A DNA stretch of 64,000 bases, taken from NCBI GenBank assembly GCA_035303785.1, contig DATGRI010000058.1:2306-66305 (forward strand), in the 5' to 3' direction. The first letter of the stretch is position 1. The number at the start of each line of letters is the position of its first letter. The notes below the pieces were generated by a model. The model was not told the DNA's origin and did not search any database. It saw nothing but the letters and a program-made list of their open reading frames with translations. This DNA comes from Sphingobacteriaceae bacterium. GTDB taxonomy: Bacteria > Bacillota > Sulfobacillia > Thermaerobacterales > RSA17. Shown piece by piece: positions 20,653 through 46,650 of the stretch. The position numbers and the translations under genes are program-made.

Positions 20653-21933
20653 TCAGCCGGCGGCGGCGGCGGCGATGTCCCGGCGGAAGTGCATGCCGTC
20701 GAAATGAATCTTCTCGATGGCGGCGTAGACCGTCTCCCGGGCGCCGGCCAGGGACGGGCCCCGGGCCACCACGTTCAAGATGCGGCCGCCGTTGGTGACC
20801 CAGCCCTTGTCGGAATCCCAGCGGGTGCCGGCGTGGAACACCTGCACGTTGGGCATGCCGGGCACGTGGCCCGTCTCATCCAGCCCTTGGATGACGTCGC
20901 CCTTGCGGGGCTCCCCGGGATAGCCGTGGGCCGCCAGGACCACGCATACGGCCGCCTCATCCCGCCACACCCAAGGCTGCTGGGCCAGATTGCCCTGGGC
21001 GCAGGCCAAGGCCAAGGCGGCGAAATCGCTTTCCAGGCAGGGGAGGATGACCTGGGCCTCGGGATCTCCCAAGCGGCAGTTGAACTCCAGCACGTAAGGG
21101 CCGTCCTCCGTCAGCATCATGCCGGCGTACAGCACGCCCCGGAAAGGAATGCCCTCGGCGGCCATGCCCGCCACCGTCCGCTGCAGCACGTCCTTCTCCA
21201 GGCGGCTCACCAGGTCGGGATCCAGGAAGGGCACCGGGGAGTAGGCGCCCATGCCGCCGGTGTTGGGCCCCTCGCCCCCGTCGTACAGGGCCTTGTGGTC
21301 CTGGGAAGCGGGGCAGAGGCGCACCGTCTCGCCGTCGGTAAAGGCCAGGAGGGTGACTTCAGGACCCTGCAGCCGCTCCTCGATGACCACCCGCCGGCCC
21401 GACTCGCCAAACCGGCCCCGGCGCATCATGGCATCCACCGCCTCCAGGGCCGTTTCCGTGTCGGCCGCCACCACCACACCCTTGCCGGCGGCCAGGCCGT
21501 CGGCCTTGACCACGATGGGGCCGCCCCGGGAGCGGATGTAGTCTTCGGCTTCGGCGGGGTCGTCGAACACCTTGCCGGGGGCCGTCGGAATGCCGTGGCG
21601 CTCCATGAACGACTTGGCGTAGGCCTTGCTCCACTCCAGCCGGGAGGCCTGCTTGGTGGGGCCGAAGGCCGGTATGCCCGCCTCCTGCAGTCCGTCCACC
21701 ACGCCGGCGGCCAAGGGCGCCTCGGGGCCCACCAAAACCAGGTCCACCTTGTTGGCCTGGGCCGCAGCCACCACGTCGGCAGGCGACAACGGGTCGCCGG
21801 GGAGGCACGTGGCCCGCTTGCCGATGGCGTCACTGCCGGGCAGGGCGAAAATTTCGGTCACCGAGGGCGAAGCCAGCAAGGTCTCCACCATGGTGTGCTC
21901 ACGGCCGCCGCTGCCGATCACCATTACCCGCAT
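20653..21933 (-). CDS. purD: Phosphoribosylamine--glycine ligase
   Basis: [50 protein letters not shown]. Typical PurD throughout. Confidence 0.93.
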
Positions 21934-21959
21934 GAATGCATCCCACCCTTACGAAAAGG

Positions 21960-23648
21960 TCAATGACGGAAATGCCGAACCCCAGTCATCAACATGGCCA
22001 CACCCAGGCGGTCGCAGGCATCCACCACCTCCTGGTCGCGGATGGAGCCGCCGGGCTGCACCACCACCTTCACTCCCCCCTCGGCGGCCACCTCCACCCC
22101 GTCGGGGAAAGGGAAGAAGGCGTCGGAAGCCATGACGGCCCCTTGGGCCGCCTCGCCCGCCTGGGCCACCGCCTGGCGCACCGCATCCACGCGGCTGGTG
22201 CGGGCGGCGCCGATGCCCACGGCCCGCTGGTCCTTCACCAGGACGATGGCATTGGAAGGCAGGTGGCGCACCAGATGCCAGGCGAAGAGCATGTCGTCCC
22301 ACGCCTCCGCCGGGGGCTGGGCCTTGGTCGCCACCCGCCACTGGTCCGGCTGGACGGGCAGGTCATCCTCGTCCTGGAGGAGCACACCCCCTTGGATGCG
22401 GCGCACGTCCCAGCCGGCCAGGCCCACGCCCACGGGTCCCGTGGAGGCGCCGCCGCCCACGGGCCCAGCGCCCGCGGGCCCTTGGCCCGAACCCCCGTCA
22501 TCACCCGACGCAGCCGGCGGCAGGGGCATGGTCAACACCCGCAGGTTGGCCCGTCCCGCCAGGATCTCCTGGGCTTCAGGGGAAACTCCCGGCGCCAGCA
22601 CTACTTCCAGGAAGATGTCCGCCAGCAGCCGGGCCGTCTCCTCGTCGATGACCCGGTTCAAGGCCACGATGCCGCCGAAGATGGAAACGGGATCGGCGTC
22701 CCGGGCGCGGCGGAAGGCCTCGGCCGGGTCGGGGCCGCAGGCGGCGCCGCAGGGGATGGTGTGCTTCACCGCCACCGCCGCCGGCGGCACCAGGGTGCTC
22801 ACCAGGCGCCAGGCGGCCTCGGCATCCTGCAGGTTGTTGAAGGACAACTCCTTGCCCTGCAGCTGCCGGGCGGCGGGCAGCCCCAACTGCCAGCCCGGGG
22901 CCGTGGGGGGTATGGCGGCGTCCCGGTAGACCGCCGCCTTCTGGTGGGGGTTCTCGCCGTAGCGCAGGCCCGCTGTCCGCCGGAGGGGCAGCACCAGCCG
23001 CTGGGGGGGCTCCACCCCGGCCTCACCCGTCTCCCCCGCTTCCTGGCCCAGGGCCGCCGCCACCACAGCGTCGTAGTAGGCGGTGTGGGCGAAGGCCCGG
23101 GCCGCCAGGCGGCGGCGGAGTTCCTCGGAAATACCGCCGGCCCCTCCTTCCTGCAGGGCCTGGATGACGGCCGGATAGTCGTCGGGGTCCACCACCACCG
23201 TGACCCAGGGCCAGTTCTTGGCCGCCGCCCTGATCATGGCGGGGCCGCCGATGTCGATCTGCTCCAGCAGGTCCATGCCCTGGGCGCCGCCGTGCCAGGC
23301 CGTCTCGAAGGGATACAGGTTGACGGCCACCAAATCGATGGCCTGCAGGCCGTGGCGGGCCCAGTCGGCCATGTCCTCTTCCCGGTCCCGCCGCCCCAGG
23401 ATGGCGCCGTGGACGGCGGGGTGCAAGGTCTTGACCCGGCCTCCCAGCATTGCGGGAAAGCCCGTCAGTTGGTCCACGGGCACCACCTGCAGGCCGGCGG
23501 CAGCCAACGCCGCCAGGGTCCCGCCGGTGGAAACCAATTCAAACCCGGCCGCCGCCAGGGCGCGGCCCAAATCTTCGATTCCCCGTTTGTCCGCCACGCT
23601 CAGCAGGGCCCGCCGGACCCGGCCGGCGCCGGCATCGTTAGCGGTCAT
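21960..23648 (-). CDS. purH: Bifunctional AICAR formyltransferase / IMP cyclohydrolase
   Basis: IMPCH N-domain (RALLSVADKRGIEDLGRALAAAGFELVSTGGT, KTLHPAVHGAIL) and AICARFT C-domain (SDAFFPFPDG, GGSIRDQEVVDACD, MLMTGVRHFRH). It contains a G/P/A-rich inter-domain insertion. Confidence 0.93.
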   Translation of the reverse strand: MTANDAGAGRVRRALLSVADKRGIEDLGRALAAAGFELVSTGGTLAALAAAGLQVVPVDQLTGFPAMLGGRVKTLHPAVHGAILGRRDREEDMADWARHGLQAIDLVAVNLYPFETAWHGGAQGMDLLEQIDIGGPAMIRAAAKNWPWVTVVVDPDDYPAVIQALQEGGAGGISEELRRRLAARAFAHTAYYDAVVAAALGQEAGETGEAGVEPPQRLVLPLRRTAGLRYGENPHQKAAVYRDAAIPPTAPGWQLGLPAARQLQGKELSFNNLQDAEAAWRLVSTLVPPAAVAVKHTIPCGAACGPDPAEAFRRARDADPVSIFGGIVALNRVIDEETARLLADIFLEVVLAPGVSPEAQEILAGRANLRVLTMPLPPAASGDDGGSGQGPAGAGPVGGGASTGPVGVGLAGWDVRRIQGGVLLQDEDDLPVQPDQWRVATKAQPPAEAWDDMLFAWHLVRHLPSNAIVLVKDQRAVGIGAARTSRVDAVRQAVAQAGEAAQGAVMASDAFFPFPDGVEVAAEGGVKVVVQPGGSIRDQEVVDACDRLGVAMLMTGVRHFRH

Positions 23649-23650
23649 CT

Positions 23651-24346
23651 TTATGCTTCTGCCTCCTCCGGCACCGGGGGTGCCACATGGACCCGCCGCC
23701 CTTCAACCCGGAGGCGTCCCTGGGCGTACAGCCGGATGGCCTCGGGCAGGAGCCGGTGCTCCACCGCCTGGATGCGGCGATGAAGGGTGCCGGGGTCGTC
23801 TTCGGGCAAGACCGGCACCGCCTCCTGCAGGATGATGGGCCCGGTGTCCATGCCGTAATCGACGAAATGAACGGTGCAGCCGCTCACCTTGACGCCCCAG
23901 TCCAAGGCCTGGGTAGGAGCCTGCAGACCGGGGAAGGCGGGCAGCAGCGAGGGATGAACGTTGATGATCCGGTTGGGAAAGGCGTCCACCATGGGGGCGC
24001 TCAGCAGCCGCATGAAGCCGGCCAGCACCACCAGTTCCACCCGGTGGGCCACCAGCACGTCCCGCAGCTGGCGATCATAGTCGGCCCGGGTGGGCCAGGG
24101 GCCGGGATCCAGCCACAAGGCCGGCACGCCGGCGGCCCGGGCTTTTTCCAATGCCGGCGCATCCCCCTTGTCGGATACCACCAGAACTACTTCCGCCCCC
24201 AGGTCTCCCCGGGCCTGGGCGGCCAGGACCGCCTCCATGTTGCTGCCCCGGCCCGAGGCCAGGACGGCCACCCGCACCGGTTCCCGGGCAGGCCGGCCTG
24301 AATCGGGGGCGCTGCCCTCCTCCCGCTGGGCACCGGCCGTGTTCAT
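23651..24346 (-). CDS. purN: Phosphoribosylglycinamide formyltransferase
   Basis: VLASGRGSNMEAVL, INVHPSLLPAFPG, GCTVHFVDYGMDTGPII. ATG 24346 overlaps the purM stop (ATGA). The longer track ORF is rejected. Confidence 0.9.
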   Translation of the reverse strand: MNTAGAQREEGSAPDSGRPAREPVRVAVLASGRGSNMEAVLAAQARGDLGAEVVLVVSDKGDAPALEKARAAGVPALWLDPGPWPTRADYDRQLRDVLVAHRVELVVLAGFMRLLSAPMVDAFPNRIINVHPSLLPAFPGLQAPTQALDWGVKVSGCTVHFVDYGMDTGPIILQEAVPVLPEDDPGTLHRRIQAVEHRLLPEAIRLYAQGRLRVEGRRVHVAPPVPEEAEA

Positions 24347-25410
24347 GACCAAATCACCTCCGGCTTGCTGTCGGGCGGCGCCTCCTCTACGACGCCGATG
24401 GGCCAGGCGCCTCCCGTCAGGGGCGCCATGGCGGCACAAAATTCTTGGGCTTGGGCTGCCGGCACCACCACGGTGAAGCCGATGCCCAAATTGAAGGTGC
24501 GGCGCATTTCTTCTTCCTCCACGGGACCCAGGCGCCGGATCAGCCGGAAGACAGGCGGCTCCGGCCACGACCCGGCGTGGAGCCGGGCCCTGGTCCCCGG
24601 GGGCAGGGTGCGGGCCACGTTGTCCGTAAGGCCGCCGCCGGTGATATGGGCCATGGCCCGCAGGGAAAAACGGCCCCGGGCGGCTTTGACGGCGCCCGTG
24701 TAAAGGCGGGTGGGCTCCAGCAGCACTGTGCCCAACGGCGCCTCCAGTTCATCGATCTCCGTGGCTAAAGTCCAGCCGGTCCCCGCCAGCAGCACCCGCC
24801 GGGCCAGGGAAAAGCCGTTGCTGTGGAGGCCCGAGGAAGCCAAGCCCACGATGACGTCCCCCGGCTCCACCGACCGGCCGTCAATCAAGTCCCCGGCGGC
24901 CACCCCGCCCACGGCGAAGCCCGCCAATTCCATGTCGTCGGGGCCCATCATGCCGGGCAGCTCCGCCGTCTCGCCCCCCAGCAGGGCGCAGCCGGCCTCC
25001 CGGCAGGCGGCGGCGATGCCCGACACCACCGCTTCCGCCTGGTCCGGCCGGAGCCTGCCCATGGCCAGGTAGTCCAGGAAGAACCAGGGCTCGGCCCCGT
25101 ACACCAAAATGTCGTTCACATTCATGGCCACCAAGTCCCGGCCGGCCCCCTCCAGCCGCCCGGCTTCCCGGGCCAGGAGCAGCTTGGTGCCCACCCCGTC
25201 GGCCGCCGCCAGCAGGATGGTTTCCGGCTGGGCCCCCGGCACCCGGAACATGCCGGCAAAGCCCCCCACCCCGGACACCACCTCGGGCCGGGCGGTGGAG
25301 GCCGCCAGGGCCCGGAACCGTCCCACCAAGCTTTCGGCGGCATCGATGTCGACGCCGGCGGCCCGGTAGGTCACGGGCCGGCGGGCGTCGTCGCCCCGGC
25401 TTTCAGTCAT
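24343..25410 (-). CDS. purM: Phosphoribosylformylglycinamidine cyclo-ligase (AIR synthetase)
   Basis: YRAAGVDIDA, GVGGFAGMF, DGVGTKLLLA, HSNGFSLAR. ATG 25410 overlaps the purF 3' end by 8 nt. Confidence 0.92.
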   Translation of the reverse strand: MTESRGDDARRPVTYRAAGVDIDAAESLVGRFRALAASTARPEVVSGVGGFAGMFRVPGAQPETILLAAADGVGTKLLLAREAGRLEGAGRDLVAMNVNDILVYGAEPWFFLDYLAMGRLRPDQAEAVVSGIAAACREAGCALLGGETAELPGMMGPDDMELAGFAVGGVAAGDLIDGRSVEPGDVIVGLASSGLHSNGFSLARRVLLAGTGWTLATEIDELEAPLGTVLLEPTRLYTGAVKAARGRFSLRAMAHITGGGLTDNVARTLPPGTRARLHAGSWPEPPVFRLIRRLGPVEEEEMRRTFNLGIGFTVVVPAAQAQEFCAAMAPLTGGAWPIGVVEEAPPDSKPEVIWS

Positions 25411-26896
25411 GGGGGTCCCGATCTCCTTCCCGGTTCCCGTCGCCGGCTGCCGGCCCCTGCTCCCCCACCGGGGGGAAGCGGCCGGTGAAGCAGCCGTGAC
25501 AATAGGCATTTTCGTCTTGGCCGGTAACGGCCAACATTCCTTTCAAGGAAAGAAAGTACAAACTGTCGGCTCCCACCAGGCGCCGCATTTCCTCCACATC
25601 CCGGCCGGCCGCCATCAACTCGCCCCGGCGGCCGATGTCCACGCCGAAGGGGCACGGGTGGCGGAAGGGGGGCGAGGTGATGCACAGGTGGACTTGGGCG
25701 GCCCCCGCCTGGCGGACGGCGTTGACCAAGGGCCGGATGGTGCTGCCCCGGACGATGGAGTCATCCACCAGCACCACCCGCCGTCCGGCCACCACGTCCC
25801 GGATGGGGTTCAGCCGCCAGCGCACCCCGGCGGGCACGTAGCGGCCCCGGGGTCCGATGAAGGTGCGCCCCACATACCGGTTCTTCACCAAGCCCAGTTC
25901 GAAGGGGATGCCGGTAGCGGCGCTGTAGCCCATGGCCGCGGGCAGGCTGGCGTCGGGCACCCCCAGGACCACGTCAGCGTCCACCACGTGCTCCTGGGCC
26001 AGCTGCCGGCCCAAGGCCTGGCGGATGGCATAGGTGGAGCGGCCGCCGAAGAGGCTGTCGGCCCGGGCCAGGTAAATCAATTCGAAAACGCAGAAAGCCT
26101 GGGGGGTGTTTTCCAGGGAGGGCAGCCGCCCCCACTGCAGCCCCTGGTCATCGATCCAAACCCAGTGGCCCGCGGGCACTTCCTGGAGGGTGTCGCCGCC
26201 CACGGCATCAAAGGCGCAGCTTTCCGAGGCCAGCAGGTAAGCCTGGTCCAGGCGGCCCAGCACCAAAGGCCGGATGCCGTGGCGATCGCGAAAGCCGAGG
26301 ATGCCTTGGGGGGTGGCGTAGACGGCGGCCATGCCCCCGTCCACTTGGGTGAGGGAGTGGCCCAGGGCTTGGGGCCAGCCGTCGCCCGGAGCCCGGGCCG
26401 CCAGGTGGGCCAGGATTTCCGCGGCGTCGCCGGAGCGGAAGACGGCCCCTTGGGCCTCCAGCCGCTGCCGCAGGGCATCGGCCCCGGCCAAGGCGCCGTT
26501 GATGGCCACGGCCAGGTGGCTGTCCCGGCACCGGACCACCAGGGGCTGCCGGTCCGCCGGCTCCGTGGACTGCTGGACGTGGCCCAGGACGATGGTGCGG
26601 GCTCCCCGGGGACCTAAGGCCAGGTCGGCCAGCTCCTCCCCGGAGAACACGTCGGTGACCAGGCCCCTGCCTCCCAGCCGGGCGAACTGGTCATCCCCGG
26701 GACCCCAGGCGGCCATGCCCGTCCTTTGCTGCCCCCGGTGCTGGAGGGCGAACAAGCCTTGGTAGGCAATGTGAACCCCTTCGGGATGCCCGAAGACGGC
26801 GAACAGGCCCGAGTGGTCCCCGGCGGCGCCCCCGCCGGAGCCCGACCGGGCGCTCCCCGACCCTCCCGCCGGCGGCCTCACTGCCGGGGCGCCCAT
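25403..26896 (-). CDS. purF: Amidophosphoribosyltransferase homologue with non-canonical glutaminase active site
   Basis: The PRTase and Fe-S parts are conserved (VVLVDDSIVRGST, SPPFRHPCPFGVD, YCHGCFTG, FCVFELIY). The position of the Ntn nucleophile Cys reads Ser (DHSGLFAVFG; TCG codon at 26812..26810). GHVRY is replaced by GHVQQ. The start is ATG 26896 or GTG 26881 (GTGA overlap with the purL stop). The 813-aa track ORF is rejected. Confidence 0.85.
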   Translation of the reverse strand: MGAPAVRPPAGGSGSARSGSGGGAAGDHSGLFAVFGHPEGVHIAYQGLFALQHRGQQRTGMAAWGPGDDQFARLGGRGLVTDVFSGEELADLALGPRGARTIVLGHVQQSTEPADRQPLVVRCRDSHLAVAINGALAGADALRQRLEAQGAVFRSGDAAEILAHLAARAPGDGWPQALGHSLTQVDGGMAAVYATPQGILGFRDRHGIRPLVLGRLDQAYLLASESCAFDAVGGDTLQEVPAGHWVWIDDQGLQWGRLPSLENTPQAFCVFELIYLARADSLFGGRSTYAIRQALGRQLAQEHVVDADVVLGVPDASLPAAMGYSAATGIPFELGLVKNRYVGRTFIGPRGRYVPAGVRWRLNPIRDVVAGRRVVLVDDSIVRGSTIRPLVNAVRQAGAAQVHLCITSPPFRHPCPFGVDIGRRGELMAAGRDVEEMRRLVGADSLYFLSLKGMLAVTGQDENAYCHGCFTGRFPPVGEQGPAAGDGNREGDRDPHD

Positions 26897-29727
26897 GGCG
26901 GCTTGACTCCCCGGCCCGGCTCGGGCAGGTGATCGACAGGAGTGGACAACAAGGAGCGGCCCGCCACGGTTACGGCCAACCGCCCGCCGCCGGCGGCGCC
27001 CAGCACCGCAGCCGGGACACCCGCCGACCGGGCGGCCGCCAGCACTTGATCCGCCGCCGCCGGCGGCGTGCTCACCAGCACCCGGGAGGGCCCTTCGCCG
27101 AAGAGCAGGGCTTCGGCGTCGCCGTCCCACTGGTCCGGGGACAGGTCCACCTGCACCCCCAAAGGCCCGCCGGCGGCGGTGCGGCAGGCCCGGGCCAGGG
27201 CGGCGGCCAGGCCGCCCAGGTCTATGCCGGCGGCCGAAGCCAGCAGCCCGTCGCTGTGCAGCTGCTGGAGCAAGGCCCACAGGCGGGCTTCCAAATCCGA
27301 ATCCACTTGGGGCGGGCGGCCCTGCACCCGGCCGTAGCGGACGGCCAGGTACTCGCTGCCTGCCAGGTCGCCGGCCAAGGGCCCCAAGACGAGCACCGCA
27401 TGGCCCGCGGCCAGCCAGCCGGGGCCCAGCACCGGCCGTCCCGGCGGGAGAACCCCCACCACCCCCACCACCGGGGTGGGGTAGACGCCTTGGCCGCCCC
27501 GTTCGTTGTAAAGGCTCACGTTGCCGCCCGTCACCGGCACGTCCAGGCTGCGGGCGGCGGCGCCCATGCCTTCGATGATCTCGGTGAATTCCCACATGAT
27601 GGCGGGATCTTCGGGGCTGCCCAGGTTGAGGCAGTTGGTCAGCCCCAAGGGCTTGGCCCCGGTGCAGGCCACCCGCCGGCCCGCCTCGGCCACGGCGGCG
27701 GCGGCGCCCCGCCGGGGATCCAGCCACGTCAGCCGGCCGTTGCCCGCCAGGGCCACCACCAGATGCTGGCCCGTCCCGGGCACCGGCACCGCCGCCGCTC
27801 CCGTGGCCAGCAAGGTGTTGTCGTCGTGCTTGCCGCCCAGCCAATGGGCTTCCGTCAGGTTGGGGCCCGCCAGCAAATCCACCAGGGCTTCGTCATAGTC
27901 GGTGGAGCCGGCTCCGGCGGCGGCCTCCCCGCCGGCGGGGGCAGGCTCCCAGCGCCGGGCCAGGTCGGCGGGCTCCGCCACAGGCCGCCGGTAGGCCGGC
28001 GCCCCCTCCGTCAGAATGGTGGCCGGCAGGGCCGCCAGTTCCACATCGCCCATGGTCACCCGCACCAGGCCGTGGTCGGCCACCCGGCCGATGCAGGCCC
28101 CGGGCACGTTCCACTGGGTCAGGATTTGCTCCACCTGGGACTCCTTGCCCGCCTTGACGATGAGCAGCATCCGCTCCTGGGTTTCCGAAAGCATGATCTC
28201 GTGGGGGCTGAGGCGGGGCTCCCGGCAGGGCACCAGGTCCAGGTCCAGGTCCACGCCCTGGCCGGCCCGCCCGGCCGTCTCCGAGGCCGCCGAGGTGATG
28301 CCCGCCGCGCCCAGGTCGTTGACGCCCACCAGCAGGTCCGCCTCCATCATGGCCAGGCAGGCCTCCACCAGGCGGCGCTTCAACTGGGGGTTGGCGGCAG
28401 GCACCGTGGTGGGGGGGATGACCTCGTCGTCCAAGCCCCGGGACGAGGCGCTGGCCGCCCGCACCCCGTCGGGCCCCGTGCGGGCGCCCACCAGGTAAAT
28501 GGGGTTGCCCACCCCTTCTGCCCGGCCCCGGAACACCCGGTCCCGGTCCACGAAGCCGGCCGCCAGCACGTTGACCAGGGGCGCGGGGCGGTACCCCTCG
28601 CCGGAAAAGACGCTGGCGGTGAAGGTGGCGATGCCGGTGCCGGCAGCGTAGTCGGCCATGCCCTCGGCCGCCCCCAGCAGGATGTCTTGGTTGTTGCCTT
28701 CCTCCAGGGGGCCTACCCGCAGGGCCCCCGCCAGGAGGGCCGGCCGGGAGCCCACGGCCAGGATGTCCCGGACGATGCCCCCGGCGCCGGTGGCGGCGCC
28801 CCGGTGGGGATCCAGGCTGGAAGGATGGTTGTGGCTTTCACAGCGCAGGGCCACGGCCACGGGGCCGCCCAGGTCCACCACGCCGGCGTTCTCCCCGGGG
28901 CCCAGGAGCACCTGGGGCCCTTCCCGGGGCAGCCGGGCCAGGTGGATGCGGGTGCTCTTGTAGGAGCAGTGCTCCGACCACATGGCTCCTACCATTTCTA
29001 ATTCCAACTGGTTGGGGGCCCGGCCCAGCCCCTGGACCAAATCGTCGTATTCCTCCCGGGTCAGGCCCACGGCCTGCCAGGGCTCCCGGTGGGCCGCCAC
29101 CCGGTCGTAAACTTCCTGCCACCCCGGCTGGGCCTGCTGCTCGGCGAGGGCCAGCCGGAGGGTCCGGGGCGAGAGCTCGCCGGCCAGGAGGAGGGCGCCG
29201 TCTTCCGTGCGGCCGAACTCCAAACGCAGGTGGATCAGGTCCAGGCCCCTTTCCTTAAGGAATGAGCCCAGCACATCGTTGACGGCCAGGGCCACCTGCT
29301 CCAGCCGCTCCACTTCGTCGGGGCCGGCCAGCCCCAGCACCTGCACATGATGGTGGTTGACCAGAACCTCCTGGGACTCGTCCCCCCGGTAATAAAGCTC
29401 CACCACGGGCCGGGGCAGGGTGGAGCCGGGGGTCAGGCCCAGGCGCCGGGCCCAGGGCTCTTCCGCGGCGTTCCGCACCAGCACCGCCAGGGGGATGGGG
29501 GCTGTCCCCTGGACCAGCATCTCCCGGGGGTTCACCCGGGCGATGAAGTGGTTGGGTATGCCGGCTTCCGTCAAAACTTGAAACAGGCGGGCGGAAATCT
29601 CGTTGCCGGCCTCTTCCTTGAAATGAATCAAACAGCGATCGGGCCGGGCCGTGCCGTAAACGATCTTCGCCTCGTCTTCCCGCAGCTTCGGCCTGGCGCC
29701 GGCGTCCGGCGGCGATTGTCTATCCAT
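26878..29727 (-). CDS. purL: FGAM synthase subunit PurL fused to an N-terminal degenerate PurC (SAICAR synthetase)-like domain
   Basis: A single uninterrupted 949-aa ORF with ATG 29727 after GGGGAGGGGGAGGG. Residues ~225-949 are PurL (MWSEHCSYKS, ESHNHPS, GAATGAGGIVRD, MLSETQERMLL, GGNVSLYNE). Residues ~15-215 are collinear with PurC (GIPNHFI, PLAVLVRN, VVELYYRGD, LRLEFG, LAGELSPRTLRL) but lack the YEGKAK and DSATAFNG...GKG segments. Confidence 0.85.
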   Translation of the reverse strand: MDRQSPPDAGARPKLREDEAKIVYGTARPDRCLIHFKEEAGNEISARLFQVLTEAGIPNHFIARVNPREMLVQGTAPIPLAVLVRNAAEEPWARRLGLTPGSTLPRPVVELYYRGDESQEVLVNHHHVQVLGLAGPDEVERLEQVALAVNDVLGSFLKERGLDLIHLRLEFGRTEDGALLLAGELSPRTLRLALAEQQAQPGWQEVYDRVAAHREPWQAVGLTREEYDDLVQGLGRAPNQLELEMVGAMWSEHCSYKSTRIHLARLPREGPQVLLGPGENAGVVDLGGPVAVALRCESHNHPSSLDPHRGAATGAGGIVRDILAVGSRPALLAGALRVGPLEEGNNQDILLGAAEGMADYAAGTGIATFTASVFSGEGYRPAPLVNVLAAGFVDRDRVFRGRAEGVGNPIYLVGARTGPDGVRAASASSRGLDDEVIPPTTVPAANPQLKRRLVEACLAMMEADLLVGVNDLGAAGITSAASETAGRAGQGVDLDLDLVPCREPRLSPHEIMLSETQERMLLIVKAGKESQVEQILTQWNVPGACIGRVADHGLVRVTMGDVELAALPATILTEGAPAYRRPVAEPADLARRWEPAPAGGEAAAGAGSTDYDEALVDLLAGPNLTEAHWLGGKHDDNTLLATGAAAVPVPGTGQHLVVALAGNGRLTWLDPRRGAAAAVAEAGRRVACTGAKPLGLTNCLNLGSPEDPAIMWEFTEIIEGMGAAARSLDVPVTGGNVSLYNERGGQGVYPTPVVGVVGVLPPGRPVLGPGWLAAGHAVLVLGPLAGDLAGSEYLAVRYGRVQGRPPQVDSDLEARLWALLQQLHSDGLLASAAGIDLGGLAAALARACRTAAGGPLGVQVDLSPDQWDGDAEALLFGEGPSRVLVSTPPAAADQVLAAARSAGVPAAVLGAAGGGRLAVTVAGRSLLSTPVDHLPEPGRGVKPPWAPRQ

Positions 29728-29760
29728 GGGCCCTCCCCCTCCCCGGCAGATAGGCGGCGG

Positions 29761-31059
29761 TCACAAGCCCGCCCGGCGGTAAATGTGGTCCATGTGGCGC
29801 AAGGCCCGGGCCGGATCGAAGCATTCCCGGATCTGCTCCTCCGTCAGCTTGTCCCGGATGCGGGGATCCTGCATGACCAGGTCCGGGAACCGGCCCCGCC
29901 CTTCCCAGGCGTCCATGGCCAGGCCCTGGACGATGCCGTAGGCTTCCTCCCGGCTGAGGCCGGCGTCCACCAGAGCCAGCATCAAAGCCTGGGAGTAGAT
30001 CAAGCCGCCGGTCCGCTCCAAGTTGGCGGCCATGGCCTGGGGGTACACGTGCATGCCTTCCAAAACTACGGTCATCAGGTGGAGCATGTAGTCCAGCAGG
30101 ATGGTGGTGTCGGGCAGGATGATGCGCTCCACCGACGAGTGGGAAATGTCCCGCTCGTGCCACAAGGGCTGGTTCTCCAAGGCCGCCAGGGCGTTGCCCC
30201 GCACCACCCGGGCCAGGCCGCTGATGCGCTCGCACAAAACGGGATTGCGCTTGTGGGGCATGGCCGAGGAGCCCTTTTGGCCCGCCCGGAAAGGCTCCTC
30301 CACCTCCCGGGTTTCCGTCTTCTGCAGGTGGCGGATTTCCACGGCCATGGTCTCCAGGCTGCCGGCCAAAATGGCCAGGGCGGCCATCAATTCGGCGTGC
30401 CGGTCCCGCTGCAGCACCTGGGTGGACACCCCCGCGGGCTCCAGGCCCAAGGCCCGGCAGACGTACTCTTCCACCCGGGGGTCCACGGTGGCGAAGGTGC
30501 CCACGGCCCCCGACAGGCGGCCCACGCTGATGGTCTCCCGGGCCCGGACCAGCCGCTCCCGGTTGCGGCCGGCCTCGGCATACCACAAGGCCAGCTTGAA
30601 GCCGAAGGAAATGGGCTCGGCGTGGACGCCGTGGGTGCGGCCCACCATGATGGTGTCCCGGTGCTCCCGGGCGGCGGCGGCCAGAACCTCCCGCAGGCGG
30701 TCCAAGCCTTCCAGCAACATGTCCACCGCTTCCCTTAGGGCCAGGGACAGGGCGGTGTCCACCACGTCGTAGGAGGTGAGGCCGTAGTGGATCCAGCGGG
30801 CGTTGGGCCCCATGACCTCCCCCAGCCAGGTGGTGAAGGCTATGACGTCGTGGTGAACTTCGGCTTCGATGGCGTTGATGCGGTCTTCGTCGAAATATTC
30901 CGGCCGGCGGGCCTTCAAGTCTTCCACCGCTTCAGGGGGTACGTGCCCCAACCGGGCGAAGGCCTCGCAGGCCAGCAGCTCCACTTCCAGCCAGCGGCGG
31001 TACTTGGCCTGGTTGCTCCACAGGGCGGCCATGGCGGGGCGGGAATAACGGGGAATCAT
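29761..31059 (-). CDS. purB: Adenylosuccinate lyase
   Basis: [27 protein letters not shown], and fumarate-lyase signature GSSAMPHKRNP. ATGA overlap with the purE stop. Confidence 0.94.
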   Translation of the reverse strand: MIPRYSRPAMAALWSNQAKYRRWLEVELLACEAFARLGHVPPEAVEDLKARRPEYFDEDRINAIEAEVHHDVIAFTTWLGEVMGPNARWIHYGLTSYDVVDTALSLALREAVDMLLEGLDRLREVLAAAAREHRDTIMVGRTHGVHAEPISFGFKLALWYAEAGRNRERLVRARETISVGRLSGAVGTFATVDPRVEEYVCRALGLEPAGVSTQVLQRDRHAELMAALAILAGSLETMAVEIRHLQKTETREVEEPFRAGQKGSSAMPHKRNPVLCERISGLARVVRGNALAALENQPLWHERDISHSSVERIILPDTTILLDYMLHLMTVVLEGMHVYPQAMAANLERTGGLIYSQALMLALVDAGLSREEAYGIVQGLAMDAWEGRGRFPDLVMQDPRIRDKLTEEQIRECFDPARALRHMDHIYRRAGL

Positions 31060-31622
31060 GGGCTCTCACCGCTGCCGGCGGTTTCTTGGGGGCTGCCCGC
31101 CCCGGCAAGCCGGCGGCGCAGTTCATCGCCGGCGGCGGCCACCTGGGCCGCCATCTGCTCCCGGTGGGCCGCCAGGCGGGGCACCAGTTCCGGGTAGCGC
31201 AGGGCCAGGATGCGGGCCGCCAGGAAGGCGGCGTTGGCGCCCCCGTCGATGGCTACCGTGGCCACGGGCACGCCGCTGGGCATCTGCACCGTGGCCAGGA
31301 GGGCGTCCAGGCCGTCGGTGGCCCAGGCTTTCACGGGCACGCCGATCACCGGCAGGTGGGTGTAGGCGGCGATGACGCCGGCCAGGTGGGCGGAGCCCCC
31401 CGCCAAGGCGATGATGACGGCTATGCCCCGTTCATGGGCTGTACGGGCGAATTGGGCTACGGTGTCGGGGGTGCGGTGGGCGGAAGCGACGGTGACTTCG
31501 TAGGGAATGGCCAGTTGGTCTAGTGTAGTGGTGACCTTGGCGACCACCGGGGCATCGGAGGCACTGCCGGCCAGTACGGCCACCAGAGGCCCGGGGAGGC
31601 CGTCGCCCTGGGCGGGTGTCAC
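31056..31622 (-). CDS. purE: N5-CAIR mutase (class I PurE)
   Basis: [21 protein letters not shown] (class-I type), [22 protein letters not shown] 31622 lies 4 nt after GGAGGTGG. No purK follows it. Confidence 0.9.
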
Positions 31623-31637
31623 GGTACCACCTCCGGT

Positions 31638-31653
31638 AATGTTCGCGCTTTTC
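31638..31653 (-). promoter_or_regulatory. PurBox-like element, proximal copy (abuts purE SD)
   Basis: Minus strand GAAAAGCGCGAACATT, containing the CGAACATT core of the Firmicute PurR box (AWWWCCGAACWWT). It is followed by ACC-GGAGGTGG-TACC-GTG(purE). Confidence 0.4.
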
Positions 31654-31673
31654 CCTGGAATGTCTGTACCGAC

Positions 31674-31702
31674 ATCATGCCACATGGGCTATGGCCGGGC
31701 AA
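31674..31702 (-). promoter_or_regulatory. Candidate purE promoter
   Basis: Minus strand TTGCCC (31702..31697), 17 nt, TGg-CATGAT (31679..31674, with an extended -10 TG). The hexamers are weak, so this is tentative. Confidence 0.3.
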
Positions 31703-31763: not shown

Positions 31764-32414
31764 CTAGTCCAGGGTGACGAGCCCCTTGCGGATGGCGTAC
31801 TTGGTCAACTGCACCGCATCGTGGAGCTGCAGCTTCTCCATGATGTTGGCCCGGTGGGCCTGCACCGTCTTGATGCTGATGAACAGGCGGTCGGCGATCT
31901 GCTGGTTGGTGAGGCCGTCGGCCACCAGCTTCAGCACTTCGATCTCCCGCTCCGTCAGGCCGTCGTAATCTTCCCGCTTCTCCCCGGCGCCCCGGCCGTG
32001 GAAGGCCATCCGGGCCACCTCGGGGTGGAGAATGGTGTGGCCCTGATGGACGGCCCGCAGGGCGGTCTTCAACTCCGAGGCCGCCGACCGCTTCAGCACG
32101 TAGCCCGCCGCGCCGGCCTGCATCAGCGGTGCCACGTATTCCTCGTCATCGTGCATGCTCAGGATGAGCACCTTGGTCTCGGGGAAGTCCTTGCGGATCT
32201 TGCGGGTGGCCTCGATGCCGTTCATGCGGGGCATGCCGATGTCCATCAGCACCACGTCGGGCCGCAGTTCGGCCACCATGGCCACGGCCTCTTCCCCGTC
32301 GGCGGCTTCGCCCACCACTTCCACATCGTCCTCCCGCTCCAGCAGGGAGCGGATCCCCTGGCGCAATATGCTGTGGTCGTCCACCAGCAGCACCCTGATG
32401 CGCTCTTCAGCCAT
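31764..32414 (-). CDS. Response regulator, NarL/LuxR (DegU/LiaR-like) family
   Basis: REC domain (RVLLVDDHSILRQG, DVVLMDIGMPRMNG) plus LuxR HTH (LTEREIEVLKLVADGLTNQQIADRLFISIKTVQAHR). ATG 32414 lies 6 nt after GGAGGGG. Confidence 0.9.
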   Translation of the reverse strand: MAEERIRVLLVDDHSILRQGIRSLLEREDDVEVVGEAADGEEAVAMVAELRPDVVLMDIGMPRMNGIEATRKIRKDFPETKVLILSMHDDEEYVAPLMQAGAAGYVLKRSAASELKTALRAVHQGHTILHPEVARMAFHGRGAGEKREDYDGLTEREIEVLKLVADGLTNQQIADRLFISIKTVQAHRANIMEKLQLHDAVQLTKYAIRKGLVTLD

Positions 32415-32428
32415 CTGCACCCCTCCCC

Positions 32429-33481
32429 TCATAGGTTGGCCACGGTGCGGGGAATCACCACCTTGACGGTGGTGCCCCGGCCGCGGATGGATGCTACCGT
32501 CAGGCGGCCGCCCACCAGTTCGGCCCTTTCCCGCATGCCGAAGAGCCCCATGCCCCGCCCGTTGGCGTCGGCCTTCTCCAGCTCCAGCAAGGAGAAGCCG
32601 ACACCGTCGTCGGTGATTTCCGCCGTCAGGGACTCTTCCGTCTCCCGCATGGTCACCGTCACGCTGCGGGCCCGGGCGTGCTTCTGCACATTGGTCAGGG
32701 CTTCTTGCACGATGCGGAACAAGGCCGTTTCCACTTCGTCGGGCAGCCGGCCCTGGAAGCCTTCTACGTCCATCTCCACGTGGATGCCCAAGGGGTCCAA
32801 TTTATGTTTAACATACCAGCGCAAGGCGGGGACGAGGCCCAGATCGTCCAGGATGGTGGGGCGCATGTCGAAGGTGATGCGCCGGGTTTCCGTCAGGGCG
32901 TCGGCGGCCATGTCCCGGATGCGGCCGATCTCCTCCGCCAGTTGGGCGTGGTTGGGGGAGCCGGCCAGGGAGTCCTTGATCAGGTCCAGCCGGATGACCA
33001 GGTTGGTCAAGGCCTGGCTCGTCTCGTCGTGGAGTTCCCGGGCGAAGCGCTTCCGCTCGTCCTCCAGGGCCCGCAGGATCTGGGAGGCCACGCTGCGCTG
33101 GTGCCGGGCCAGTTCGTCCAGCATCTGGTTCAAGGTGGCGGCCAGTTCCGCCACATCGGGGTCGCCGCTGATCTCCGGCGCCCGCTTTTCCCGGTCACCG
33201 CGGCGGATTTCCTCCATGGTTTCCCGCAGCAGGAACAAGGGGTGGAAGGCCACCCGCATCAGCAGGTAGTTGATGAGGAGACTGGCGCTGATGGCCGCGG
33301 CCAGGATGACGGTGGAGCCGGTGTAGGCGCCGGCCAGATCGGGCGCCGGCTCCCGAACGATGACCCAGGCCGATGCCAGGGCGGTGCCGGCGATCAAGGC
33401 CACGTTGGCCACCAACACCTTGTAGAAGATGGGTACCTGGGCATTCAGCCGGCGGATTACGTCGGCCACTGCCTGCAACAC
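32429..33481 (-). CDS. Sensor histidine kinase, HisKA_3 (NarX/DesK/LiaS-like) family
   Basis: Two TM segments, a HAMP-like linker, H-box ERKRFARELHDETSQALT and HATPase_c (VQEALTNVQKHA, DDGVGF, GMGLFGMRERAELVGG). GTG start 7 nt after GGAGG. Confidence 0.88.
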   Translation of the reverse strand: MLQAVADVIRRLNAQVPIFYKVLVANVALIAGTALASAWVIVREPAPDLAGAYTGSTVILAAAISASLLINYLLMRVAFHPLFLLRETMEEIRRGDREKRAPEISGDPDVAELAATLNQMLDELARHQRSVASQILRALEDERKRFARELHDETSQALTNLVIRLDLIKDSLAGSPNHAQLAEEIGRIRDMAADALTETRRITFDMRPTILDDLGLVPALRWYVKHKLDPLGIHVEMDVEGFQGRLPDEVETALFRIVQEALTNVQKHARARSVTVTMRETEESLTAEITDDGVGFSLLELEKADANGRGMGLFGMRERAELVGGRLTVASIRGRGTTVKVVIPRTVANL

Positions 33482-33496: not shown

Positions 33497-34726
33497 TCAT
33501 TCCCATTCGATGGTGCCGGGGGGCTTGGCGGTAATATCATAGGCCACCCGGGTGATGCCGGGCACTTCCCGCAGGATGCGGTCCGACAGCCGGGCCAGCA
33601 GGTCGTGGGGCAGGCGGGCCCACCCGGCGGTGACGGCATCCTGGCCGGTTACGGCCCGCAGCACCAGGGCCTCGCCGTACACCCGGCGGCCGTCGTCGGT
33701 GCCCACGGCCCGGGCGCCCGTCAAGACGGCGAAATACTGCCAGATGTCCCGGTCCAGCCCCGCCTGCCGGATCTCCTCCCGGAGGATGGCATCGGCCCGG
33801 CGCAGGACGGCCAGGCGCTGCGGCGTTACCTCTCCCAGCACCCGGATGGCCAGCCCGGGGCCGGGGAAGGGCTGGCGCCAGATGAGTTCCGGCGGCAGCC
33901 CCAGGGCGACGCCCACATCCCGCACCTCGTCCTTGAACAAATAGCGCAGGGGCTCCAGCAGGTCCAATTCCATCCGCTCGGGCAGCCCCACGTTGTGGTG
34001 GGTCTTGAGGGCTTTCCCCGACAGGAGCCCGCTTTCCAAGACATCGGTGTAGAGGGTGCCCTGGAGAAGGAAATCCATGTGGCCCAGGCGCCGGGCCTCC
34101 TCTTCGAAGACGGCGATGAATTCAGCCCCGATGCGGCGCCGCTTTTCTTCGGGGTCGGCCACCCCGGCCAGGGCCGCCAGGAACCGCTCCCCCGCATCCA
34201 CCGTGACTACGTTCCAGCCGAAGCTGCTGAAGGATTGGGGCACTTCCCGGGCCTCGCCCTCCCGCAGGAGGCCGTGGTCCACGAACAGGCACACCAGGCG
34301 CCGGCCGATGGCCCGGTGGACCAATGCCGCCGCCACCATGGAGTCCACGCCCCCGCTGAGGCCGGCCACCACGGTGCCGTCGCCCACCTTGTCCCGAATG
34401 GCCTGCACCGCCTGGTCCACCTGGGCCGCCGGCGACCAGCCGCCCCGACAGCCGCACTCCCGGAACAAGAAATCCCGCAGCCGGTCTTCGGCCACGGGCT
34501 CGCTGCCGGCCGCCAGGACGGGCAGTTCCGCCAATCCCGAAGCAGGGTCCTGATGGGTCGTCAACACCACGCCCCGCACCGCGGGCAGATCCCAGCCCTT
34601 GGGCGCGGTGCCGGGGGGCTGCAGTTCACAGTAAACGCCCAAGCTGCGAATTTGCCGCACCAGGCGGTGGCCCGCGCCGGTGCCGCCATCCACCACGATG
34701 ATGGCTTCGTCCCGGGAACGGAACAT
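33497..34726 (-). CDS. guaA: GMP synthase with intact ATP-pyrophosphatase/dimerisation domains but a truncated GATase domain
   Basis: The ATP-PPase P-loop ([11 protein letters not shown]) and C-terminus ([39 protein letters not shown]) are conserved. The N-terminus keeps only [27 protein letters not shown]... and then joins directly to the ...[10 protein letters not shown] linker. There is no G(V/I)CYGMQ Cys or HPE His/Glu segment. The protein is 409 aa, versus about 510-525 aa for fused GuaA as I recall. Confidence 0.85.
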
Positions 34727-34727
34727 G

Positions 34728-35321
34728 CTACGCTCCCCCGCCGTCGTCGTCCCGGCCGGCGGCGCCCGTGGCCGATTCCTTCAGCACCGCCACATGGGGC
34801 AGGTTGCGGAAGTGCTCGTCCCAGTCCAGACCGTACCCCACCACGAAGGCGTCGGGGATGGTGAAGCCCCGGTAGTGGACGGGGGCCTCCACCTCCCGCC
34901 GGTCGATCTTGTCCAGGAGCACGCACACCCGCAGGCTGCGGGGGCCCCGGCTCAAGAGATGGTCGTACAAGTAGCGCAAGGTGAGCCCGGTGTCGATGAT
35001 GTCCTCCACGATGAGGACGTGGCGGCCGGCGATGGACAGGTCCAGGTCTTTCAAAATGCGCACCACGCCCGAGTGGCGGGTGGCGGCGCCGTAGCTGGAC
35101 ACGGCCATGAAGTCGAAGGTGACGGGCACCGTTATGGACCGGGCCAGGTCGGCCAGGAAGATGACGGCGCCCTTCAAGATGCCGACGCAGATGAGTTCGT
35201 TGCCCACGCTCAGGCCGGCATAGTCTTGGGAAATGGTCTCCGCCAGTTCCTTGACCCTGGCGGCGATGACCTCTTCCGACAGGAGAACGTGATCGATGTA
35301 ATCGCCAGTCAAAGGAAGCAT
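34728..35321 (-). CDS. hpt: Hypoxanthine-guanine phosphoribosyltransferase
   Basis: PRPP motif [14 protein letters not shown], plus [14 protein letters not shown]. The start is set at ATG 35321. The stop lies 1 nt before the guaA ATG. Confidence 0.88.
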
Positions 35322-35409
35322 CCCTCCCAGCACCCGGGGGCCGCGGGGGCATGATCCCGGGGCCCGCCGGACCGTGCCGGAATCTTCGTGGATACTATAC
35401 ACCATAAGG

Positions 35410-35453
35410 AATGACAAAGCCCCCGGCAGTCCCCCAAGGGGACCGCCGGGGGC
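35410..35453 (-). terminator. Intrinsic terminator of groES-groEL
   Basis: RNA: GCCCCCGGCGGUCCCC..GGGGACUGCCGGGGGC (about 15 bp, one G.U) followed by UUUGUCAUU. It lies about 40 nt after the groEL stop. Confidence 0.7.
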
Positions 35454-42042: not shown

Positions 42043-43494
42043 TCAAAATTGGCAGGTCCGCGCCCACCCTGCCAAATATAAGGAGCCGCACACGATGACC
42101 ACGCCCTCGGGGCCGGCGGCCCGGGCTGCCTGCTCCAGGGCCTCCCCCGGCCCGTCCCATGGACGGGCTGCCAGCCCGGCGGCCCGGAAGGCGGCGGCCA
42201 CCTGATCCGGGGCATAGCCGGCCACCCCCGGCACCGGCACGGCGTGGACCATTCCCAGGCCCGGGGCGCCCGCCCAGGCGGCGGCCATGCCCGCCAGGTC
42301 CTTGCCCTTTACGACGCCGCACACCAAGGCCAGGGGCCGCCCGGGGAACAACTCTTCGATATTGCTGCGCAGGACGGCCATGGCGGCGGGGTTGTGGCCG
42401 CCGTCCACCACCAGGCTCGGGCTGCCGGGGAGGGTCTCCAGCCGGGCCGGCCAGCGGACCTGGTCCAGGCCCGCCTGGATTCGGGCCTTGGTCACAGGGC
42501 CCACGGCTTCCCGCCGGGTCCGGCCCAGCACGTACAGGCCGGCCAGGGCGGCGGCGGCGTTTTCCCCCTGGTGGCGGCCCGCCAGGGGCACCCGGTAAAT
42601 GCCCGACAGGGGCGCCCCGGGGGGAGCCATCAGTTGGAAGGTCACTCCCCCGGGCTCGTTGGCCAGCACCCGGTACCGCCACAGCACCACACCATGGTCG
42701 CCGGCCGGGTCATCCACCGGTCCCGGGGTGGCGGGCATCTCCACGATCCGGTGCACCGGGCAGCCCTGGGCCCGGGCGGCTTGGGCCACCACCCGCCAGG
42801 GCTCTCCCCGGAGGGTGGTCACCACGGGGACCCCTTCTTTGATGATGGCCGCCTTTTCGGCGGCGATGGCCGCCAGGGTGCCCCCCAGGCGATCGGCGTG
42901 GTCCACGGCGATGGAAGTGATGACGGCCAAGGCGGGACGGGCCACCAGATTGGTAGCATCCAGGCGCCCGCCCAGGCCCGTCTCCTGGATGAGCCACGGA
43001 AACCCTTCCCGGGCGGCCAGCAAGTACATGGCCGCCGCCAGCACTTCGAACTGGACGGGCTCCTCCCCCAGCCGCTCCGTCACCGCCGCCACCGCCGGCC
43101 AGACGGGGGCGACGGCGGCGGCGAAGGCTTCCCGGTCCAGGGGCCGGCCGTCCAGGCAGAAGCGCTCGCCGTAGCAGGTCAGATGGGGGGAGGTGAAAAG
43201 GGCGGTGCGCCGGCCCATGGCCCGGAGCAGCGCCCCCAGCAGGGCGGTCACCGAGCCCTTGCCGTTGGTTCCCGCCACGTGAACAATATTTGGGATGGTT
43301 TCATGGGGATTGCCCAGATGGTCCAGGAGGGCCGCCATCCGGTGGAGGCCCGGCCGGACGCCGAAGGCGTTGAGACGGGCCAGCCTGTCCACCACGGCCT
43401 GGTAGTCTCCATGGGTGGGGGGCGCCCCGGGCAGGACGGCTTCGGCCCCGGCCCCCGGGCTGTGGGGCAGGCCTAAGGACGGGCCGGTGCTCAC
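42043..43494 (-). CDS. folC: Folylpolyglutamate synthase / dihydrofolate synthase
   Basis: Mur-ligase P-loop VHVAGTNGKGSV, then ...ITSIAVDHADRLG.... GTG start directly after the guaB TAA. Confidence 0.88.
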   Translation of the reverse strand: MSTGPSLGLPHSPGAGAEAVLPGAPPTHGDYQAVVDRLARLNAFGVRPGLHRMAALLDHLGNPHETIPNIVHVAGTNGKGSVTALLGALLRAMGRRTALFTSPHLTCYGERFCLDGRPLDREAFAAAVAPVWPAVAAVTERLGEEPVQFEVLAAAMYLLAAREGFPWLIQETGLGGRLDATNLVARPALAVITSIAVDHADRLGGTLAAIAAEKAAIIKEGVPVVTTLRGEPWRVVAQAARAQGCPVHRIVEMPATPGPVDDPAGDHGVVLWRYRVLANEPGGVTFQLMAPPGAPLSGIYRVPLAGRHQGENAAAALAGLYVLGRTRREAVGPVTKARIQAGLDQVRWPARLETLPGSPSLVVDGGHNPAAMAVLRSNIEELFPGRPLALVCGVVKGKDLAGMAAAWAGAPGLGMVHAVPVPGVAGYAPDQVAAAFRAAGLAARPWDGPGEALEQAARAAGPEGVVIVCGSLYLAGWARTCQF

Positions 43495-46555
<3,061 letters not shown>

Positions 46556-46650
46556 GAACATCATCCCCTGCCGCCCGCGCATCGGCCCATGCGCAGTGAA
46601 TGTCAAAACCGGTTTATTTTATGATTTGGCCGCCCGCAAATGGCCGCCCT

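Follow-up and report, generated by a model that had tools for sequence, protein, structure and literature searches.

A GMP synthase with only a remnant of its glutaminase domain, and a probable turn to ammonia for purine synthesis in a Thermaerobacterales-related lineage

How does a bacterium make guanosine monophosphate (GMP) when the domain that should supply the nitrogen to its GMP synthase has largely gone? The question is raised by a 64-kb stretch of contig DATGRI010000058.1 (assembly GCA_035303785.1; hereafter, the window), in which guaA codes for a protein of only 409 amino acids (aa). Reviews describe the GMP synthetases (GMPS) of bacteria and eukaryotes as two-domain, glutamine-using enzymes, with the two functions split in archaea only, and published GMPS phylogenies drop sequences without the canonical domains. 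The short GuaA of the window is probably an ammonia-dependent GMP synthase that works within an ammonia-dependent purine pathway.

In the 409-aa protein, a Pfam search matched GMP_synt_C (PF00958, E = 1.1e-34) and a PP-loop domain, and gave no match to the glutamine amidotransferase (GATase) family PF00117. The C-terminal model TIGR00884 scored 430 bits against a cutoff of 339, and the N-terminal GATase model TIGR00888 only 11.8 bits against a cutoff of 172. In the comparison with Escherichia coli GuaA (1GPM), residues 84-409 aligned to 195-525 (E = 5.8e-106) and residues 8-36, weakly, to 9-37. The main gap is of ca. 99 residues and corresponds to E. coli 87-185, which includes the His and Glu of the catalytic triad, and a further ca. 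11 residues are gone from loops. Gly74 sits where E. coli has the nucleophile Cys86, and the alignments contain neither the GxCxG nucleophile motif nor the HPE motif, i.e., the protein lacks the Cys-His-Glu triad of a class-I GATase that is a trait of EC 6.3.5.2. A sequence-only reading of this locus had proposed a GMP synthase with an internally deleted glutaminase domain that keeps the first beta-alpha-beta unit, lacks about 100 residues with the nucleophile and the HPE segment, and has conserved ATP pyrophosphatase (ATPPase) and dimerisation domains. All of this holds, except that this first unit does not pass directly into the inter-domain linker, as had been supposed, since residues 37-83 hold degenerate remnants of strands beta3 (VRGVVLTT, cf. 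GIILSGGP) and beta4 (LPVLAAG, cf. VPVFGVC).

The synthetase part carries the motifs SGGVDS, DVLES, LKTHHN, KDEVR and KPPGTIEWE, and all the residues that are essential in the GMPS of Plasmodium falciparum are kept (the Asp of DxxES, the Lys-x-His-His-Asn of the lid loop, KD(D/E)V(K/R), and the Lys and Glu of the C-terminal loop). The protein is thus a PP-loop ATPPase with lid-loop, alpha11 and alpha12 motifs, followed by a C-terminal domain with the KPPxTIE(W/F)E signature, and, judged by its motifs, its synthetase site should be competent in the chemistry of EC 6.3.4.1 without any glutaminase. A hidden upstream GATase exon or a frameshift is ruled out. The ATG of guaA lies one base past the stop codon of the upstream gene hpt and there is therefore no room for such an exon, and a six-frame hidden Markov model (HMM) search recovered no GATase remnant in other frames.

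The gene is real and is being kept. An identical 409-aa protein was found in two independent sequencing runs, an 88%-identical homologue, also of 409 aa, in seven runs, and an 85%-identical homologue has 410 aa; the short architecture is common to relatives at 85-88% and 61% identity. Logan runs with sequence of this lineage include SRR29457790, SRR32187464 and ERR13909482. This recurrence excludes a deletion produced by sequencing or assembly, the error that would have undone the sequence-only reading. We calculated the ratio of nonsynonymous to synonymous substitution rates (dN/dS) between the window gene and its 88% relative, and obtained 0.215 overall, 0.115 for the ATPPase domain and 0.24 for the dimerisation domain. 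Within the stub, residues 1-36 gave 0.18 and residues 37-83 gave 0.82. Neighbouring genes ranged from 0.007 to 0.21 (0.06 to 0.21 for the purine genes among them), and neither frameshifts nor premature stops were seen in the purine block. By these codon comparisons, the short guaA is maintained under purifying selection and is neither an artefact nor a pseudogene.

Its position tells where it came from. The gene order in the window is groES-groEL-hpt-guaA-HK-RR-purE-purB-...-purD-HK-pcrA-ligA (HK, histidine kinase; RR, response regulator), and in Thermaerobacter sp. GCA_017577485.2 it is hpt-guaA-HK-RR-purE-purB-purC-purS-purQ-purL-purF-purM, with a full-length guaA of 516 aa. Since the order hpt-guaA-HK-RR-purE-purB is shared, the short gene is the ortholog of the fused guaA, and neither an archaeal-type subunit nor an extra copy. 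The synteny and the kept stub bear out the earlier proposal of a deletion in place rather than an archaeal two-subunit arrangement. The other finding that would have spoken against that proposal, a separate GATase subunit gene (guaAA), was looked for locally, and the 64-kb window contains none apart from an unrelated homologue of the Peptidase_C26 family.

The same architecture has arisen repeatedly. Stub-type short proteins of 404-430 aa make up 15 of the 120 best homologues, among which two more short forms carry N-terminal additions, one of them being an Hpt::GuaA fusion. Partial deletions are seen in a set of intermediates of 466-468 aa, and some full-length GuaAs have a point-inactivated triad. 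The latter are P0025, P0060 and P0064 (516-535 aa), with changes such as GICYG to AIGYG and FHPE to FHLE, and they seem to show this decay at an early stage; among them, P0025 shares 83% identity with a GuaA of Neomoorella humiferrea (P0014). In neighbour-joining trees of 312 ATPPase columns, the short P0016 groups with the full-length P0105 (97% bootstrap) and P0033 (100%), and it is 89-91% identical to P0105 versus 66% to the window protein. P0047 groups with the full-length P0032 (100%), P0006 and P0024 with each other (100%), both being 80-84% identical to full-length proteins, and the window protein with P0002, P0003 and P0004 (100%). A single origin of all the short forms is rejected, as their monophyly had 0% bootstrap. 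The Thermaerobacter-like P0016 shows a clean excision, from between GVPVL and GICYG to between VQFH and PEV (codon alignment with P0033; the sequence resumes before PEVVHT), and the ATPPase domains of these two proteins have a dN/dS of 0.14. A search of 1.84 billion cluster representatives added ca. 17 further stub-type clusters at 50% identity. From these groupings with separate full-length sisters, and the extra clusters, the phylogeny indicates that at least five independent decays have led to the same stub architecture.

Why should part of a dead domain be kept so consistently? In the unrotated state of GMPS, the domain interface is formed by helix alpha1 of the GATase against helices alpha11 and alpha12 of the ATPPase, and positions 1 and 4 of the alpha1 motif (K/R)(K/R)XRE make salt bridges with positions 2 and 3 of the alpha12 motif KD(D/E)V(K/R) (bioRxiv 10.1101/808618). 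The same work reported that mutations in alpha1 depress even the NH4Cl-dependent kcat, and that the Lys, His, His and Asn of the lid loop have catalytic roles. In our alignment, R24 and R27, which stand at these two positions of the alpha1 motif, are invariant across 111 sequences; the R..R pair is retained in nearly all the stub forms, in which the glutamine-site motifs DFGSQY and SGGP decay. AlphaFold2 (AF2) folds the stub of the window protein into strands at residues 8-12, 33-36, 50-55 and 70-72 and a helix at 17-28, with per-residue confidence (pLDDT) of 76-93, and the query-normalised TM-scores of the model are 0.80-0.88 to two-domain GMPS versus 0.62-0.68 to archaeal ATPPase subunits. 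Helix alpha1 would probably still dock on alpha11 and alpha12, with Arg24 and Arg27 pairing with Asp266 and Glu267, as a structural buttress and not as a catalytic module. We infer that the stub survives for this reason, i.e., to support the catalytic helices.

A second part of the protein changes together with the glutaminase. The C-terminal motif GV-M-G-D-x-R-T-Y has its GD in 134 of 138 intact GuaAs and in all five solved GMPS sequences compared, including the ATPPase subunit of Methanocaldococcus jannaschii, which has a separate glutaminase. Only three of the 36 decayed forms retain GD, and 17 have DG, the window protein (TDDG) among them. The change is seen even between sisters (P0016 versus P0105; P0006 and P0024 versus P0008 and P0053; P0089 versus P0074; P0025 versus P0014), and the Ile of the lid loop has been replaced by Val in 16 of 30 lineages. 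This covariation suggests that the GD motif serves a glutamine-dependent function.

GuaA is not the only enzyme affected, and the next genes of the purine operon provide the pathway context. In PurF, Ser29 aligns with the N-terminal nucleophile Cys1 of Bacillus subtilis PurF, behind an extension of 28 residues; the nucleophile has been lost and the fold retained. It is unlikely that Ser29 acts as a stand-in nucleophile, since it is not N-terminal and the glutamine-binding Arg, Tyr and Asp are gone as well. Among the 120 nearest PurF homologues, Cys, Arg and Asp are kept in 116 and Tyr in 114. Apart from the window protein, the same losses are seen in the 88% relative and in a 57% relative, the latter with Gly at the Cys1 position; the other 117 do not show them. 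The run that gave the 57% relative, a dead PurF, also gave the short GuaA P0004, which is 61% identical to that of the window. The glutamine domain of the window PurF has a dN/dS of 0.14.

Between purB and purF there is a single gene, of 949 aa, in which a PurC-like domain (46% identical to Thermaerobacter PurC by BLASTP) is fused to PurL (53%). The genes purS and purQ, which lie between purC and purL in Thermaerobacter, are gone, and no homologues of PurC, PurS or PurQ were found elsewhere in the window. The same fusion is present in the 86-88% relative and is confined to this lineage. The ATP- and Mg-site motifs of the PurC-like part have been lost (GKAK to DEAK, deletion of the GKG..N segment, AGS to EEP, DFKLE to HLRLE), and its dN/dS is 0.34 despite this loss. 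With PurF devoid of its nucleophile, purS and purQ deleted and GuaA shortened, all three glutamine-dependent purine steps (PurF, PurL/PurQ and GuaA) appear to have lost glutaminase function in this lineage.

These observations can be joined in one proposal. An in-frame deletion would have cost the class-I glutaminase domain its catalytic half, leaving a beta-alpha-beta-beta-beta remnant, and a GuaA that no longer hydrolyses glutamine would aminate adenylated XMP (xanthosine monophosphate) with free ammonia (XMP + ATP + NH3 -> GMP + AMP + pyrophosphate, the chemistry of EC 6.3.4.1). The shift would be pathway-wide: with a PurF without its nucleophile and a PurL without PurQ and PurS, all three steps would run on ammonia. 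Published work supports the chemistry, as the ATPPase does not depend on the GATase domain for its activity, and two-domain GMPS and archaeal ATPPase subunits take external NH4+ in vitro with comparable kcat, although with a high Km. We infer that NH3-dependent activity also operates in vivo, and an ammonia-rich habitat, possibly hot and proteolytic, may have been the selective setting.

Several points weigh against this proposal. The published Km values for NH4Cl are 26 to 174 mM, so dependence on ammonia would need a high intracellular NH3 concentration or an improved affinity. The PurC-like domain looks catalytically degenerate, and de novo synthesis would need a further purC outside the window; in a genome without one the pathway would be interrupted, and the idea of a pathway on ammonia weakened. 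The window covers only 64 kb, and the rest of the genome may contain a free-standing glutaminase subunit, any of purQ, purS and purC, or another guaA of full length. In another short-GuaA lineage (locus L094) purQ is kept, so the triple loss is specific to the lineage of the window; by the same token, GuaA appears to shed its glutaminase more readily than PurL does. Finally, the alignment given to AF2 included full-length homologues, from which the placement of the stub may have been inherited.

The ammonia could, instead, come from a glutaminase encoded elsewhere, be it a guaAA-like subunit, the Peptidase_C26 protein of the window or a polypeptide providing the absent C-terminal half of the GATase fold. 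This is how archaeal GMPS operates, with subunits that, according to published work, associate only transiently; an intact class-I GATase is found 15 kb away and most of the genome is outside the window. We nevertheless consider this quite improbable. No GATase gene adjoins the short guaA within ca. 10 kb in the six lineages examined, and in the model the stub's own alpha1 fills the docking surface that the alpha1 of a partner would use. The decayed glutamine-site motifs of the stub make split-domain complementation unlikely, and the loss here of the GD motif, which the archaeal ATPPase subunit with its separate glutaminase keeps, argues against a partner in trans. Moreover, the built-in nucleophile of PurF is gone from this lineage too, a loss that no partner of GuaA would make good. 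It is also unlikely that the syntenic gene is a decayed duplicate with a side role (for instance as an isozyme for high ammonia, in salvage together with Hpt, or as one half of a heterodimer), next to a canonical glutamine-dependent guaA, and perhaps purQ, purS and purC, elsewhere. The incompleteness of the genome and the dead-looking PurC-like domain, which implies a second purC, would fit such a duplicate, and the hpt-guaA pairing and the Hpt::GuaA fusion hint at a role in salvage. However, the short gene holds the ancestral guaA locus, the constraint on its ATPPase domain matches that on the genes around it, and glutaminase function has been lost in three different enzymes together. A scan of 185,579 species genomes gave no close relative of the short GuaA among the matches listed, which were only full-length GuaAs at 51-61% identity.

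The loss of several catalytic modules, the degenerate PurC-like domain and the adjacent hpt could also be taken as signs of a decaying pathway in a cell that salvages its purines, with guaA, purF and purL on their way to becoming pseudogenes. This is very improbable given the intact reading frames of the purine block, the dN/dS of 0.06-0.22 for the purine and guaA genes tested (as well as the low value of the PurF glutamine domain), the invariant catalytic residues of the synthetase, and an architecture that relatives down to 61% identity have kept. Ammonia-dependent synthesis is therefore the reading that we favour. Its most extended version is more tentative, and we would put it somewhat short of an even chance. 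It states that a Thermaerobacterales-related lineage has shed glutaminase function from PurF, PurL/PurQ and GuaA and runs the pathway on free ammonia, that the loss in GuaA is recurrent, convergent and always spares the alpha1 buttress, that the convergent change from GD to DG marks an unrecognised coupling element, and that the absence of hisH described below hints at an extension beyond purines.

The short GuaA can be placed among known systems with some precision. Like two-domain bacterial GuaA (EC 6.3.5.2; E. coli 1GPM, Thermus thermophilus 2YWB), it has the ATPPase domain, the lid loop, the alpha11 and alpha12 motifs and the dimerisation/XMP-binding domain, and it keeps the N-terminal beta1-alpha1-beta2 with the interface arginines. 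Unlike them, it is devoid of the triad and of ca. 110 GATase residues, its glutamine-site motifs have decayed, GV-M-G-D has become DDG, and the lid loop is one Gly shorter. It resembles archaeal GuaAB (M. jannaschii 6JP9, Pyrococcus horikoshii 2DPL) in having no glutaminase activity and in the predicted folds of the ATPPase and dimerisation domains, with target-normalised TM-scores of ca. 0.9. The archaeal ATPPase subunit makes GMP from XMP, ATP and NH4+ in vitro, as the window protein probably would. However, the archaeal subunit (ca. 305-310 aa) starts at the ATPPase domain, with no stub or other GATase residues, has its GATase as a separate protein and keeps GD, whereas in the window protein an 83-residue remnant precedes the ATPPase domain, GD is lost, and the gene derives from a fused bacterial one by internal deletion.

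As a PP-loop (N-type) ATP pyrophosphatase, the single-domain NH3-dependent NAD+ synthetase NadE (EC 6.3.1.5) adenylates its substrate, and glutaminase-fused forms coexist with it. The PP-loop similarity of the short GuaA to NadE was seen in domain searches, but the analogy is functional only, as NadE belongs to a different substrate family and has no vestigial glutaminase stub. For PurF there is a precedent in the crenarchaeal PurF', a paralogue without the N-terminal Cys for which ammonia dependence has been proposed (Brown et al. 2011, PMC3261824). The window PurF has likewise lost its glutaminase nucleophile, but in Crenarchaeota a canonical PurF is encoded alongside, and the operon of the window has no PurF other than the altered one, which is accompanied by the PurL/PurQ and GuaA losses.

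The coordinates of the features are collected in Table 1. The pur operon (20653-31685, minus strand) has no purK. The purE open reading frame (ORF) from 31685 has 209 aa with a long N-terminal extension, and is called as 188 aa in the related locus L081, where hpt is called as 197 aa; the true start of hpt in the window is probably near 35321. The hpt-guaA pairing is kept in all the related loci. A HisKA_3 histidine kinase and a GerE-type response regulator lie between guaA and purE (31764-33481, minus strand). Thermaerobacter and the short-GuaA relatives have the same pair, and the response regulator is nearly identical in the window and the 88% relative (dN/dS 0.007). The guaB gene is in an unusual neighbourhood, flanked on both sides by genes of the Mur ligase family (42043-46606, minus strand). 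The Peptidase_C26 gene lies between nnr (50783-52546) and tsaE, without linkage to purine genes. An Rfam scan of the 64 kb did not detect a purine riboswitch or any other RNA family.

Table 1. Positions in the window of the short guaA, its parts and the other genes discussed
Feature	Positions	Strand	Basis or remark
PurF, dead N-terminal nucleophile (Ntn) glutaminase site	25403..26896	-	Cys1 to Ser29, Arg73/Tyr74 to Gln/Gln, Asp127 to Ala
PurC-like::PurL fusion, 949 aa	26878..29727	-	Pfam, BLASTP against Thermaerobacter PurC and PurL, synteny
guaA, short form, 409 aa	33497..34726	-	ORF, Pfam and NCBIfam matches, PDB alignment; vestigial GATase stub, ATP-pyrophosphatase and dimerisation domains
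C-terminal XMP-binding motif KPPGTIEWE	33500..33526	-	1GPM alignment and homologue alignment
GTDDGRRVY, residues 342-350	33677..33703	-	Counterpart of conserved GV-M-G-D-x-R-T-Y, here DG
alpha12 motif KDEVR, residues 265-269	33920..33934	-	Invariant in alignments; partner of the alpha1 arginines per published work
Lid loop, residues 240-249	33980..34009	-	Variant of IK(T/S)HHNVGGLP, one Gly shorter
PP-loop SGGVDS, residues 124-129	34340..34357	-	Invariant in two alignments
Inter-domain linker helix, residues 82-97	34436..34483	-	Aligns to E. coli residues 195 onward; AF2 helix 80-90
Vestigial GATase stub, residues 1-83	34478..34726	-	Alignment and AF2
beta4 remnant LPVLAAG, residues 68-74	34505..34525	-	Alignments; Gly74 at the nucleophile Cys position; deletion junction directly after
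beta1-alpha1-beta2, residues 8-35	34622..34705	-	alpha1 motif R24-Q-I-R27-S at 34643-34657
hpt, purine phosphoribosyltransferase	34728..35417	-	Pfam Pribosyltran; abuts guaA
guaB, IMP dehydrogenase with CBS pair	43495..45111	-	Pfam IMPDH, E = 1.5e-168; supplies XMP
Peptidase_C26 family protein, ca. 250 aa	49965..50717	-	GICRG and WHPE motifs; only intact class-I GATase homologue in the window

Other loci with decayed GuaAs showed arrangements of their own. At L094 (6820-8670) P0024, a 616-aa fusion of Hpt and a short GuaA, is followed by purE-purS-purQ-purL-purF; as read from its sequence, this fusion is a functional link between purine salvage and a glutaminase-less GuaA. At L095 (14781-16128), and also at L096, the GuaA glutaminase is partly deleted (P0038, 467 aa). 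The his operon of these two loci is hisZ-G-D-B-A-F-IE, with 26 bp between hisB and hisA, and it locally lacks hisH, which codes for the glutaminase subunit of imidazole glycerol phosphate synthase. The context of the PurL homologue P0125 came from a different run and was uninformative.

In the literature searched we found no description of a naturally glutaminase-free, recurrent bacterial GMPS, and the searches on bacterial GuaAs without a glutaminase and on purine pathways that depend on ammonia gave the archaeal PurF' as the only precedent. If they work on ammonia, the stub-type proteins also expose a systematic annotation error, as they pass the curated threshold for glutamine-hydrolyzing GMP synthase. 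The short GuaA scores 474 bits with NCBIfam NF000848, above the cutoff of 400, with only profile positions 179-512 covered, and automatic annotation would accordingly label it "glutamine-hydrolyzing," a name that is probably wrong. If the short forms are ammonia-dependent, they would offer a natural test of what maintains glutaminase domains and ammonia tunnels in amidotransferases, and of when these are dispensable. They would also be ready-made minimal enzymes for the ATPPase half-reaction, and their evolutionary replicates would point to the residues that couple the two domains, i.e., helix alpha1, the GD motif and the lid-loop Ile. Along with the recurrence in other lineages, the neighbouring PurF and PurL/PurQ losses go beyond the sequence-only reading and turn a single-gene oddity into a pattern at the level of the pathway. 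These parallels suggest that the whole pathway has been rewired around nitrogen supply, which matters for metabolic models built from metagenome-assembled genomes.

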